From an uncultured Solirubrobacterales bacterium (GTDB taxonomy: Bacteria > Actinomycetota > Thermoleophilia > Solirubrobacterales > 70-9): a stretch of DNA of 64,000 bases. The translations under genes were made by a program, and so were the position numbers. Shown here in pieces: positions 38,851-57,839 of the stretch (the first letter of the stretch is position 1; every line of letters starts with the position of its first letter). The notes below the pieces were generated by a model. That model ran no database searches. It saw only the letters and a list, made by a program, of their open reading frames with translations, and was not told the DNA's origin. The stretch spans positions 2,210,021 through 2,274,020 of the forward strand of contig OY970321.1 of the NCBI GenBank assembly GCA_963716735.1, written 5' to 3'.

Positions 38851-41800
38851 TTGAGCACTCGCCCGAAAGCACGCGTGAAATCTGACCCGCTGGCGCCGTT
38901 CAGCGCTCCGGTCAGGCGCTGGTTCGAGTCGTCCTTCGAGGGGCCGACGCCTGCCCAGGCGGGCGGTTGGGAGGCGATCGCCGGTGGCGCCAACTCGCTG
39001 ATCTGCGCCCCGACCGGCTCCGGCAAGACCTTGGCCGCCTTCCTCTGGGGCATCGACAAGCTCTCCCGGTCACCGGCGCTGGGGCAGGGCGTCAAGGTCG
39101 TCTACGTCTCGCCGCTGAAGGCGCTCTCCTACGACATCGAGCGCAACCTGCGCGCGCCGCTGCGGGGGATCGGGGCCGACATCTCCGTCGGCCTGCGCAC
39201 GGGTGACACCAGCCAGAAAGACCGCCGGGCGATGCGCAAAACGCCGCCCGACATCCTCATCACCACCCCCGAGTCGCTCTACCTGATGCTCTCCTCGGGC
39301 GCCCGCGAGATCCTCACCGGGGTCGAGGCGGTGATCGTCGACGAGATTCATGCGGTGGCCCAGTCCAAGCGGGGGTCGCACCTGGCGTTGACTTTGGAGC
39401 GGTTGGACCATCTGGTGAAGGACCATGCGGGTTCGGCCGCGGGTCCTGTCACGGGGGAGGGGGTGTCCGGGTCTGGGCTGGGTTTTTCGCCTGCTGAGGA
39501 TGCTCCCCTCGCTGAGTCGGATGGGCGAAAAAGAGGACGCCGCCCTGCCCCGGACACCCCCTCCCCCGTGACACCCGCGGGAGGGGCGCAGGGGGTTCAG
39601 CGGATCGGGCTGAGCGCCACCCAGCGGCCGCTTGAGCGGATCGCGAAGTTCCTGGTCGGTCCTAAGAGAGCTTGCGAGATTGTGGATGCGGGGGTGGCTA
39701 AGGAGCTGGACCTCGAGATCGTCGTTCCGGTTGAGGACATGTCGGAACCGGGGGCTCCTAATTTCCCCAACAGCGAGGGCGTTCCCAATGAGGGCGAGCC
39801 CCTGGCCCACGTCCGTTCGATCTGGCCCGCGATCTACCCCGAGCTCCTCAAGCTGGTCAAAGAACACAACTCGACGATCATCTTCGTCAACGCCCGTCGA
39901 GCAGCTGAGCGCCTGGCAAAGCGCCTCAATGAGCTTGCGGCCGAAGAACCGGAGCGTGAGCTACCAGCCACCGAGCAGGTGGGGCACTCCCCTTCCGCGG
40001 GTGGCGTGGGGGATGGGGGGGTCGAGGACGCCCCCGCCCGCAGCGCCCCCCCATCCCCCGCGACAGGACCCGCGGTTGACGGAAATGAGCCCTTGGTGGA
40101 GATCGCCAGGGCGCACCACGGGTCCCTGTCGCACGAAGAGCGCCTTGTGGTCGAGGAGATGCTCAAGTCGGGCCAGCTTCCCTGCCTGGTCGCGACCTCG
40201 TCGCTGGAGTTGGGCATCGACATGGGCGCCGTCGACCTCGTGATCCAGGTCGAGTCGCCGAAGTCGGTCAGCCGCGGGCTGCAACGGGTCGGCCGCGCCG
40301 GTCACTCGCTGGGCGAGGTCTCGCGCGGCCGCATCTTCCCCAAGTTCCGCGCCGACCTGCTCGAGTGCGCCGTCGTCGCGCGGCGGATGCGCGAAGGCGC
40401 GATCGAGGAGACGGTGATCCCGCAGAACCCGCTCGACGTGCTCGCCCAGCACCTGGTCTCGATGGCCGCGTTGGACGAGTGGGAGATCGACGAGGTCGAG
40501 CGCCTCGTCACCGCCACCCAGCCCTTCGGCGAGCTCTCGCGCGAACAGCTGGAGAACGTGCTCGACATGCTCGACGGTCGTTACCCGTCCGACCGCTTCG
40601 CCGAGCTGCGACCGCGGATCGTCTGGGACCGCACCCGCGGCACGATGCACGGCCGCAAAGGTTCCCGCCAGCTCGTCGTCACCAACGCCGGCACGATCCC
40701 CGACCGCGGCCTCTACGGCGTCCACCTGCCCGACGGCCGCCGCGTCGGCGAGCTCGACGAGGAGATGGTCTACGAGGCTCGGGCCGGGCAGACCTTCCTG
40801 CTGGGCGCGACGACCTGGCGGATCGAGGAGATCACCCGCGACCGGGTCATCGTCACGCCCGCGCCCGGCCTGCCGGGGGCGGTGCCGTTCTGGAAGGGCG
40901 ATGGGATCGGCCGCCCGGCCGAGCTGGGGCGGGCGATCGGCGCCTTCTCTCGCGAGGCGGTCTCGCGCGAGCCAAAGGAATTGGCCGCCGAGTACGACCT
41001 CGACCGCCGCGCCGCCGAGAACCTCGTCGCCTATCTGCGCGAGCAGCAGGCGGCCACCCGGGTCGTCCCTTCCGATGAGACGATCGTAGTCGAGCGCTTC
41101 CGCGACGAGATCGGCGACTGGCGCCTCTGCATCCTCTCCCCCTTCGGCGGCCGCGTCCACTCCGCCTGGGGCCTCGCTCTGGGCCAGAAGATCCGCGAGG
41201 AGCACGAGCTGGAGGCGGACGCGATCTGGTCCGACGACGGCATCGTCATCCACCTGCCCGACGCCGACGAGCCGCCGTCCGCCGACCTGGTCATGGTCGA
41301 TCCCGACGAGCTCGAGGACCTGGTCGTGCGCGAGCTCTCCGGCTCGGCCCTGTTCGGCGCCCGCTTCCGCGAGAACGCCTCGCGGTCGCTGCTGATCCCG
41401 CGCGCCTACCCCGGCAAGCGCACGCCGCTCTGGCAGCAGCGCCTCAAGTCACAGAGCCTGCTCGAAGTCGCCCGCGACTTCCCCCGCTTCCCGGTCATCC
41501 TCGAGACCTACCGCGAGTGCCTGCGCGACGTCCTCGACCTGCCCTCGCTGCGCCAGATCCTCACCGACCTGCACTCGCGCAAGCTCGGTCTGGTCGAGGT
41601 CGAGACGCCGACCGCGTCGCCCTTCGCCTCCTCGCTGCTCTTCGACTTCGTCGCCACCTACATGTACGAGGGGGACACGCCGAACGCCGAGCGCCGCGCC
41701 GCCGCGCTCTCCCTCGACCGCGACCTGCTGCGCGAGCTGCTCGGCCAGGAGGAGCTGCGTGAGCTGATCGACCCCGAGGCGCTGGTCGAGGTCGAGGCAC

Positions 41801-55371: not shown

Positions 55372-56532
55372 GTGACTACCGCCACTGATTCCGGGGTCTA
55401 CGAGATCCCGCAGGAGTCGCGCGACCTGCGCGACATGGTGCGCCAGTTGGCGCAGGAGAAGATCGCGCCGCGCGCCGGTGAGATCGATCGCGAGGGCAAG
55501 TACCCGTGGGACGTGAGGCAGCGGCTCGCCGAACACGACATCCTCGGCCTGCCCTTCGAGGAGAAGTACGGGGGTACCGGCACCGGCACGCTGGTCCTGC
55601 AGATGGCGGTCGAGGAGATCGCCAAGGCCTGCGCCTCCTCCGCGCTGATCCTGATGATCCAGGAGCTGGGCACGCTGCCGATCCAGCTCTTCGGCTCCGA
55701 TGAGCTGAAACAGCGCTTCCTGCCAAAGTGCGCCAGCGGCGAGTGGTCGCCCGCCTTTGCGCTGTCGGAGCCGGAGGCCGGCAGCGACCCGGCCTCGATG
55801 CGGACCACCGCCGTCCGCGATGGCGACGAGTGGGTGATCAACGGCCAGAAGAACTGGATAACCAACGCCTCGATCGCCGACTTCTACATCGTCTTCGCCG
55901 TCACCGACCGCGAGAACAGGCGGATGAGCGCCTTCGTGGTCGAGAAAGAGCGCGAGGGCTTCGACCCGGGCCAGCTCGAGCACAAGCTCGGGATCAAGGG
56001 CTCGCCGACCGGCTCACCCTCGTTCACCGACGTCCGCGTCCCCAACGAGAACATGGTCGGGGCCGAGGGCAAGGGGCTGAGCGTCGCGCTCGGCACCCTC
56101 GAGCGCACCCGCCTCGGTGCCGCCGCGCAGGCGGTGGGGATCGCCCAGGGGGCCACCGACTACGCCAACCAGTACTCCAAGGAACGCATCGCCTTCGGCA
56201 AGCCGATCAACAACCTGCAGGGGATCCAGTTCAAGCTCGCCGACATGGAGACCGGGACCGCCGCCGCGCGCGAGCTCCTCTACAAAGCCTGCTCGATGGC
56301 CGACAAGCCCGAGCGCCCTGCCGACCTCGGCAAGTGGACCTCGATGGCCAAGCTCTTCGCCTCCGACAACGCGATGAAGGTCACGGTCGAGGCGATCCAG
56401 GTGCTCGGCGGCTACGGCTACGTCAACGAGTACCCGGTCGAGCGCATGCTGCGCGACGCCAAGATCACCCAGATCTACGAGGGCACCAACGAGATCCAGC
56501 GGGTCGTGATCGCCCGCGCGATGGGCGCTTAG
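55372..56532 (+). CDS. Acyl-CoA dehydrogenase (short/branched-chain type)
   Basis: 386 aa. FALSEPEAGSDPASMRTTA, QKNWITNA, and the C-terminal YEGTNEIQRVVIAR motif. Confidence 0.9.
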   Translation: MTTATDSGVYEIPQESRDLRDMVRQLAQEKIAPRAGEIDREGKYPWDVRQRLAEHDILGLPFEEKYGGTGTGTLVLQMAVEEIAKACASSALILMIQELGTLPIQLFGSDELKQRFLPKCASGEWSPAFALSEPEAGSDPASMRTTAVRDGDEWVINGQKNWITNASIADFYIVFAVTDRENRRMSAFVVEKEREGFDPGQLEHKLGIKGSPTGSPSFTDVRVPNENMVGAEGKGLSVALGTLERTRLGAAAQAVGIAQGATDYANQYSKERIAFGKPINNLQGIQFKLADMETGTAAARELLYKACSMADKPERPADLGKWTSMAKLFASDNAMKVTVEAIQVLGGYGYVNEYPVERMLRDAKITQIYEGTNEIQRVVIARAMGA

Positions 56533-56696
56533 GAGGGTCTAGCGAAACCCCCGCACGCGTCTGGCGGCGGCGGACACGGCGCGGTGCGGCGTCCTCGGTC
56601 GGCCAAATAGCGCTGCTATTCGGCCTCCCTGCGTCCTTGCCCCGCTTGGTCCGGCGCTCGCCAGGCCGCATACGCGAGTTTCGCTAGACCCTCCTA
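56530..56696. repeat. 167-bp palindromic intergenic element with perfect 19-bp termini
   Basis: taggagggtctagcgaaac (56530-56548) equals the reverse complement of gtttcgctagaccctccta (56678-56696). The interior is also an imperfect palindrome with a central hairpin ggccaaatagc/gctattcggcc. The TAG stops of both convergent genes lie in the arms. Confidence 0.85.
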
Positions 56697-57839
56697 GGCC
56701 ATCGGCAGCGGGGTGCCGCTGACCGGGGGCGCTTCGGCCGGGGCCGGGGTCGCCTGTAGGACCGGCAGCTCCTGAGGCGTGGCGGCGATGATGCCGCGGG
56801 CGGCCTGGCGGATCGCCTGCGAGGCCGGTGAGTCGGGTTCCTCGATGGAGAGCGGGGAGCCGTTGTCGGCGTGCTCGCGCAGCGGCTCGGAGAGGGGAAC
56901 CTTGCCGAGCAGCGGGATGTCGAGCTCGTCGGCGAGGAGCTGACCGCCACCCTCGCCGAAGATCGTGAAGCGCTCGCCGTCGGGCGTGGTGAAGCCGGAC
57001 ATGTTCTCGATCACGCCGAGCAGCTCGAGGTCGAACTTGACCGCCATGTCGGCGGCCCGTTTCGCCACGGTCTGCGCCGCCGGTTGCGGCGTGGTGACGA
57101 TCGCGAACTTGGCCTGTGGCAGGAGCTGGGAAAGCGTCATCGAGACGTCGCCGGTTCCGGGCGGCAAGTCCAGCAGCAGGTACTCCAGCTCACCCCAGGC
57201 GACGTCCTCGAGGAACTGCTGGATCGCCTTGTGCAGCATCGGGCCGCGCCAGACCACCGCCGAGTTCTCCTCGACGAAGAAGCCGATCGACATCACCTTG
57301 ACCCCGCCCGCCCCCACCAGCGGCAGGATCTTGCGCTCGCCGTTGACCTCGGGTTTGTGGTTGACGCCGAGCATGCGCGGCATCGAGTAGCCGTAGACGT
57401 CGCAGTCGAGGGCGCCGGCCGAGTGGCCTTCGGCGGTCAGCGCCGCGGCCAGGTTGGCCGTCATCGTCGACTTGCCGACGCCGCCCTTGCCGGAGGCGAC
57501 GCAGATCACGTTCTTCACCTGGGCCAGTGCGCCCTCCGGCAGCTTGCTGCGGCCGAGGGTCTGCTGCAGGTTGCCTTTCTCGTCCTCGGAGAGGACGTCG
57601 AAGCCGACCGCGACCGCGGTCACCCCGTCCAGCTGGGATACCTGCTGGGCGACCGCCTGTTCGAAATGGGAGCGGATCGGGCAGCCGGCGGTGGTCAGTG
57701 AGACGACGACCTCGACTCGACCGTCGTCCTTGATCTCGATCGAGCGGACCATGCCCAGCTCGACGATCGAGCGACGCAGCTCGGGATCGATGACGGCGCG
57801 CAGCTTCTCGGTGACCTGATCTTCGCTCGGAAGGGGCAT
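56694..57839 (-). CDS. apbC: Fe-S cluster carrier ATPase Mrp/ApbC/NBP35 family (N-terminal DUF59-like domain)
   Basis: ATG 57839. VTEKLRAVIDPELRRSIVELGMV, VASGKGGVGKST, LLLDLPPGTGD. The upstream 377 codons of ORF 56694-58970 are antisense to the next gene. Confidence 0.88.
   Translation of the reverse strand: MPLPSEDQVTEKLRAVIDPELRRSIVELGMVRSIEIKDDGRVEVVVSLTTAGCPIRSHFEQAVAQQVSQLDGVTAVAVGFDVLSEDEKGNLQQTLGRSKLPEGALAQVKNVICVASGKGGVGKSTMTANLAAALTAEGHSAGALDCDVYGYSMPRMLGVNHKPEVNGERKILPLVGAGGVKVMSIGFFVEENSAVVWRGPMLHKAIQQFLEDVAWGELEYLLLDLPPGTGDVSMTLSQLLPQAKFAIVTTPQPAAQTVAKRAADMAVKFDLELLGVIENMSGFTTPDGERFTIFGEGGGQLLADELDIPLLGKVPLSEPLREHADNGSPLSIEEPDSPASQAIRQAARGIIAATPQELPVLQATPAPAEAPPVSGTPLPMA

Follow-up and report, generated by a model that had tools for sequence, protein, structure and literature searches.

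The 167-bp spacer between the convergent genes for an acyl-CoA dehydrogenase (ACAD) and an Mrp/NUBPL-type Fe-S cluster carrier ATPase (P-loop) is very probably a non-autonomous MITE of about 161 to 163 bp, whose termini, judging from sequence comparison, would have been copied from one end of an IS1182/IS5-like IS of related genomes. The TAG stop codons found at both of its edges appear to have been preserved and duplicated by the element, not created by it. The family is new, and our literature search found nothing on it; the type of element, an IS1182/IS5-type MITE, is already known. The window, by which we mean the whole stretch of 64,000 nucleotides that was analyzed, corresponds to positions 2210021 to 2274020 of the genome of an uncultured Solirubrobacterales bacterium (G000), assembled as a single contig of 2.83 Mb with 67.8% G+C. 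Positions given below are those of the window unless the genome is named.

ACAD is encoded on the forward strand at 55372-56532 (start approximate) and ends in ..AMGA followed by TAG, and mrp is encoded on the reverse strand at 56694-57836 (start approximate) and ends in ..LPMA followed by TAG; both genes were identified by Pfam and by their orthologs. As claimed in a preliminary description of this DNA, the 19-mers at 56530-56548 and 56678-56696 are exact reverse complements, and the two stops are the first triplets of these arms, at 56530-56532 (+) for ACAD and at 56694-56696 (-) for Mrp. With up to 3 mismatches allowed, the 19-mer occurs at only two places in the window, compared with 0.03 expected by chance, and two matches were seen in none of 100 shuffles. 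The complementarity of the arms reaches 33 nt at 85%. The same description had taken the entire spacer to be a single long palindrome, and folding agrees with this: the 187-nt stretch around the spacer forms one long hairpin on either strand (-115.8 kcal/mol, z of -6.3, on the forward strand and -126.3 kcal/mol, z of -8.2, on the reverse strand), with a stability that no shuffle equals. The central hairpin described at the time is present, but its loop is the 3-nt GCT instead of "gc," and it contains one mismatch.

The whole copy (56530-56696, 167 bp) includes the TA of each flanking CTAG-type repeat, and the extent of the element proper depends on the length assumed for the duplication: a 4-bp one, TTAG at the left and CTAG at the right, leaves 56533-56693, and a 2-bp TA leaves 56532-56694. 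The left terminal inverted repeat (56530-56548, forward strand) consists of TA, GGAGGG, a variable tetranucleotide that is TCTA in this copy (56538-56541), and GCGAAAC, and the right one (56678-56696, reverse strand) is its exact complement. Between them lies an interior (56549-56677) that is not derived from the IS and forms an imperfect palindrome, the middle layer of which is conserved among long-form copies according to their alignment and consensus fold. The conserved core (56589-56639, forward strand) comprises the motif GCGTCCTCGG at 56589-56598, the apical hairpin at 56601-56625, with 11-bp arms at 56601-56611 and 56615-56625 around the GCT loop, and the motif CTGCGTCCTTG at 56629-56639. 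The only open reading frames across the 167 bp are the spurious long frames of a high-GC genome, and none encodes a transposase.

The palindrome is a dispersed repeat and not a local structure. A full-length twin at positions 648047-648213 of the genome differs by one base (99.4% identity), a third copy is 94% identical with different outer arms, and further, more diverged copies exist, so that the single-copy status named beforehand as an argument against a mobile element was not what the genome search found. A profile of the conserved core detects about 25 copies in this genome, shorter hairpin repeats with the same core. Of 24 genomes of the same genus that were searched, 23 contain related sequence, as do some other families of the order, and several relatives carry many full-length copies (at least 8 in G024, for instance). 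A scan with the terminus, run as an exact pattern against one genome per species, matched at least 118 stretches, nearly all of them in soil MAGs of uncultured Solirubrobacterales or Conexibacteraceae. Complete copies of 159 to 172 bp make up 69 of the 118 among the matches listed, and the other listed matches are internal-deletion derivatives (40 to 105 bp) or solo ends. The flanks of the copies are mutually unrelated.

Two minor observations emerged from the same scan. Solo left termini of about 25 to 27 nt, followed by CTAG or TAG and then by unrelated DNA, occur in L174, L178, L213, L220, and L277, and these could be footprints of excision or deletion. In L216, which is from Amycolatopsis echigonensis and thus lies outside the Solirubrobacterales, and in L246, the terminus pattern is matched with no partner arm nearby; these are probably chance matches in GC-rich DNA.

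The MITE-like reading, one of three that had been put forward for the spacer, is borne out by several properties that are counted among the general criteria for prokaryotic MITEs (PMC10969869): small size, terminal inverted repeats (perfect over 19 nt, 85% over 33 nt), a short target-site duplication of the CTAG type, many copies at unrelated sites whose presence or absence differs between genomes, and termini in common with an autonomous IS. To find this partner, we searched 100 genomes of the genus for DDE_Tnp_1 transposases and then compared short words with the ends of the MITE. In at least 12 IS copies, the terminus consists of (C)TAG, GAGGG, a variable tetranucleotide, and GCGAAAC, after which comes a second GCGAAAC motif, and this terminus matches that of the MITE over 20 to 24 nt at about 95% identity. 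When IS copies in different contexts are compared with each other, the IS boundary falls exactly at the shared terminus and the length comes to about 1.65 to 1.9 kb. The opposite IS end (GAGCGGTTTTCCG...) repeats the first one imperfectly in inverted orientation and is only weakly similar to the MITE terminus. One IS copy has TAG on both sides, and another has CTA on both sides.

The transposase of this IS measures 377 to 396 aa and combines DUF772, DDE_Tnp_1, and DDE_Tnp_1_6, a Pfam architecture compatible with either IS1182 or IS5. Its best NCBIfam model is NF033551 (IS1182), but the score of 121 to 141 bits lies below the curated cut-off of 270, and the IS5 models, which come next, likewise score below their cut-offs, so that the assignment to a family is approximate. 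The sequence between the MITE termini shows no relation to the partner IS, which speaks against this account, as does the weak similarity of the other IS end. Furthermore, no homolog of the partner transposase was found in G000, which means that the MITE copies of this genome are stranded; that the genome lacks the transposase and yet holds two copies only one base apart counts against the partner account.

Other candidates for an autonomous relative were examined and rejected. With an IS630 partner, the element would be an IS630/Tc1-type MITE with a TA duplication; 17 of 101 genus genomes contain IS630, and matching termini were found at none of 30 loci. A split copy in G019 is not the autonomous parent; it is a MITE in which an IS1595-family IS with termini of its own has inserted in the apical loop. 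The pair of termini 2.46 kb apart at L167:1018-3478 is a rearrangement with its parts in direct orientation, namely, a truncated left MITE half and a full copy with 2.2 kb of other DNA between them. A terminus-like site that L289 and L293 have about 2.56 kb away from the IS end was rejected as the other end because the comparison of IS copies with each other places the left boundary about 700 bp further in. The insertion seen in G019 has counterparts in several unrelated genomes: an IS1595-family IS sits in the apical loop (GCGCTGC) of MITE copies in L048:1001-2165 (G019), L229, L180, L192, L177, and L217. This IS is about 990 bp long and encodes a 308-aa transposase with a zinc ribbon and an ISXO2-like DDE domain, and the MITE apex appears to be a preferred target for it.

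The flanks of the copies point to a defined target. Among the matches listed, the three bases that precede GGAGGG are CTA in 46 of the 69 complete copies, and the three that follow CCCTCC are TAG in 55 of the 69; hence, the element is bracketed by CTAG-type repeats. The twin is flanked by perfect CTAG on both sides, and the copy in the window by TTAG at its left edge and CTAG at its right. Since CTAG is palindromic, duplications of 2, 3, or 4 bp look the same. The site occupied by a copy in G007 is empty in G000, with a single CTAG kept. At the site orthologous to that of the twin, the element is absent in G008 and G075. In G008, two stops abut there (TAG, TCA) and no CTAG is present, so that the site does not differ from that in G000 by a simple duplication; the right-hand gene ends in the same residues, and its stop alone changes, from TGA in G008 to TAG.

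The genome contains 1411 CTAG sites, 0.17 times the number expected. Judged by a crude and incomplete gene set of 1602 ORFs, these sites overlap with stop codons in at least 220 cases, in 9 of them on both strands. The rarity of CTAG and its concentration at stop codons explain why the element is placed on TAG. Among the matches listed, 55 other complete copies have enough flank; a terminal TAG ends a gene-like ORF in 26 of these 55, and both terminal TAGs are gene stops in 5. In other words, the arrangement between ACAD and mrp is a recurrent outcome of target preference and not a special design.

The earlier suggestion that the insertion had supplied new stop codons to both genes is not supported by comparison with orthologs. 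ACAD orthologs that are 86 to 94% identical occur in one subset of the genus, and several of them converge on mrp without the element. In G061 and G157, the junction reads TAG, 6 nt, CTA, and in G104, G056, G142, and G152, the element-free spacers are 12 to 39 bases long. The MITE insertion was present in none of 13 orthologous ACAD loci, including 8 in which mrp is still adjacent. The stops at the element-free junctions are usually TAG, and they follow the same residues as in the window: ACAD ends in ..AMG(A/S), and Mrp ends mostly in ..LPMA, with slightly longer versions in G056 (..PMAQ) and G142 (..LPVVQG). Mrp ending in ..LPMA and a stop is likewise found without the element in G066 and G020. 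The comparison of C termini that had been recommended therefore gave neither truncation nor extension, and since both proteins end at the same residues when the palindrome is missing, the element would have preserved the stops and created, truncated, or extended nothing. Among the sampled orthologs, the exact empty site predicted for ACAD-mrp is absent, the closest junction being that with 6 nt between the stops.

The surroundings of mrp vary in other ways as well. In 29 relatives that were first sampled by Mrp similarity, ACAD does not adjoin mrp; what lies downstream of mrp therefore varies. In G018, ACAD and mrp are separated by a different spacer of 189 bp (L137) that is unrelated to the MITE. 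The C terminus of Mrp itself is polymorphic in the genus (window positions 56697-56710 versus L059-L087): ..LPVVQ is found in those relatives whose Mrp is most nearly identical overall, and ..LPMA is found in the window, G066, G020, G061, and G104, with ACAD adjoining mrp only in the ..LPMA group. The mosaic look of the mrp 3' end and of the region beyond suggests recombination.

Taken as a MITE, the spacer probably arose as follows. The transposase of the partner IS would insert the element at the rare palindromic CTAG (or YTAG) and duplicate this site. As either strand of CTAG contains TAG and the site occurs for the most part at stop codons in this genome of 68% G+C, the element would tend to land on stops, and each duplicated half would keep a TAG for the gene on its own side. 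Before the insertion, ACAD and mrp would have been convergent, with TAG stops that abutted or overlapped, and we infer that in the simplest case, a single YTAG served as the stop for both genes. The insertion would then have separated the stops by 161 bp and changed neither protein. The resulting hairpin of about 60 bp, in RNA or in single-stranded DNA, may incidentally block read-through or hinder ribosomes at the stops. In E. coli, REP elements close to stop codons are reported to impede terminating ribosomes.

The origin of the interior is a separate matter. Short hairpin repeats of about 100 nt, for instance at positions 1222376-1222478 (L020:1439-1541), 1306729-1306832 (L015:1438-1541), and 1954843-1954942 (L019:1488-1587) of the genome, share the core of the MITE and have closing stems that are locus specific and nearly perfect. 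These stems usually end in CTGAGG...CCTCAG and include the stop codon of the neighboring gene. All three repeats are absent at the orthologous sites in close relatives, and in two or three of the cases looked at, one arm is similar to the end of the native gene and the opposite arm looks like an inverted copy of that end. Possibly, then, the core is a hairpin that moves on its own and spreads or grows through fold-back or template switching, with the flanks being copied inverted, and the 167-bp form would be a chimera of this hairpin with IS1182 ends; we put this forward tentatively, as an idea that could well prove wrong. For the long form, we rejected the related notion that the outer arms were preexisting terminator hairpins, as the empty sites have no such hairpin. 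Separately, L145 (G017) and L143 (G008), which are orthologous to the region around 1306700 in G000, contain other nested palindromes (TGATGCC...GGCATCA) that are mutually related and that overlap or follow the TGA stop at the very gene end that bears a short hairpin repeat in G000. In this genus, several families of palindromes have their hot spots at the 3' ends of genes.

Conceivably, the hairpin was exapted after its arrival as a bidirectional terminator or insulator and has been retained to stop antisense transcription between the convergent genes. It is very stable on both strands and fills the whole convergent gap, relatives without the element have almost no spacer, and family members are represented at low depth in soil metatranscriptome contigs, one of which (203 nt) spans a whole element with 10 differences and comes from another locus. 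We nevertheless consider this role improbable. The element has no U-tract, and none of the sites between 56300 and 56950 on either strand was terminator-like by the criterion for intrinsic terminators. The insertion is specific to this lineage, as the 13 orthologous ACAD loci illustrate, and there is hence no conservation that would argue for selection; other copies, moreover, lie upstream of genes as often as downstream. The RNA signal is weak, stems from other loci, and may reflect carry-over of DNA. As an account of how the spacer originated, the "terminator of unusual length" of the preliminary description fails on the missing U-tract and on the relatives that have only 6 nt between the stops.

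Across copies, the two arms of the palindrome tend to match. When 27 long-form copies are aligned, the consensus hairpin has 60 pairs, 35 of which show double compensatory changes. The variable tetranucleotide of the arms takes 11 forms and is perfectly complementary in 51 of the 69 complete copies among the matches listed, with a mean of 0.30 mismatches compared with 1.41 after the partners are shuffled. It varies among the IS copies as well, and the transposase thus seems to tolerate variation at this position. The core contains two conserved G-U pairs; elsewhere, G-U (32) and A-C (38) are balanced, which fits a constraint or process acting on a DNA palindrome and not on one RNA strand. In the covariation analysis that had been proposed as a check, the pairs do covary, and outside the two conserved positions, the balance of G-U and A-C is the one expected for a DNA palindrome. 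Between orthologous copies, we counted 14 compensated double differences, 17 single differences, and no uncompensated doubles, in pair comparisons that are not independent, since one locus enters several of them. Compensatory evolution in situ was set aside as the explanation; large switches such as TCTA to ATTG could equally mean that another copy replaced the original or that a new insertion hit the CTAG already used. Template switching within quasi-palindromes is a known mutational route, and together with master copies that have matched arms and with ectopic conversion, it is a candidate cause of the matching.

It is very unlikely that the copies belong to a structured non-coding RNA family in which the covarying core functions as RNA and each copy is a gene or a cis-regulatory element. 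Such a family would account for the compensatory changes, the two conserved G-U pairs, and the presence of the core in some 25 shorter repeats of the genome. However, searches of Rfam 15 with E values up to 10 gave no match at the gathering score, the best hits (E of 4 to 10) falling far below it; the copies have no fixed orientation relative to neighboring genes and lie beside gene ends and starts alike; the termini are derived from an IS; presence and absence vary between genomes; and a scan of the region found no promoter-like site. The "structured small RNA" of the preliminary description is unsupported for the same reasons, there being no Rfam match, no asymmetry of G-U and A-C between the strands, and no fixed orientation. 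Mobilization by a RAYT (Y1) transposase, with a REP/REPIN-type element spreading in the form of a single-stranded hairpin, would suit a long hairpin with covarying arms and complementary tetranucleotides but is scarcely credible, as Y1_Tnp (PF01797) was not found in this genome, the termini match a DDE-type IS, and the flanks carry CTAG direct repeats. Nothing that we tested supports a dedicated function for the element.

As a MITE whose termini match those of an IS1182-like IS, the element has a close parallel in MITEPye1 of Paracoccus yeei, which is small, non-coding, and intergenic, is predicted to form a stable hairpin, and has terminal inverted repeats of about 18 bp that match the ends of ISPye18 (IS1182 family) and 4-bp direct repeats (PMC11578231). 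The Solirubrobacterales element is likewise small, non-coding, and hairpin forming, with termini that match those of an IS and with direct repeats. It differs from MITEPye1, which is from another phylum and is likened to it by description, in that its interior is unrelated to its IS, its copy numbers are far higher and extend across a whole order of uncultured actinobacteria, and the score of its partner transposase lies below the curated cut-off for IS1182. For IS5 of Escherichia coli and the IS5-family MITEs, the target is YTAR and the duplication measures 4 bp. The partner IS resembles IS5 in its DUF772 and DDE_Tnp_1 domains, its CTAG/YTAG target, and a terminus that starts with GGA/GAGG...GCGAA, but at 1.65 to 1.9 kb, it is longer than IS5 (1.2 kb), and the NCBIfam IS5 scores are weaker than those for IS1182.

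Two other systems invite comparison. The Correia elements (NEMIS) of Neisseria are palindromic MITEs of 100 to 160 bp with TA ends that lie near gene ends and form a long RNA hairpin; we know of no transposase partner for them. They are AT-rich and from another phylum, and the likeness to the Solirubrobacterales element is one of description. REP/REPIN elements share with the latter the dispersed intergenic hairpins and the two arms that evolve together, but unlike it, they need RAYT and have neither DDE-type IS termini nor a CTAG duplication.

For annotation, this means that palindromes of 160 to 170 bp at gene ends in Solirubrobacterales MAGs are to be read as transposon copies and not as terminators, riboswitches, or small-RNA genes and that TAG stops inside such palindromes are genuine. 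A preference for CTAG as the target, combined with base composition, would steer the transposon onto stop codons and leave the genes unharmed, permitting insertion even between convergent genes that abut. The case opens no new biological question; what it contributes, for an order that is poorly studied and mostly uncultured, is a MITE family of very high abundance together with a partner IS. The window also contains a second palindrome, of 127 bp (39447-39573), which is carried in-frame within the Lhr helicase gene and belongs to a different family with no sequence relation to the MITE.
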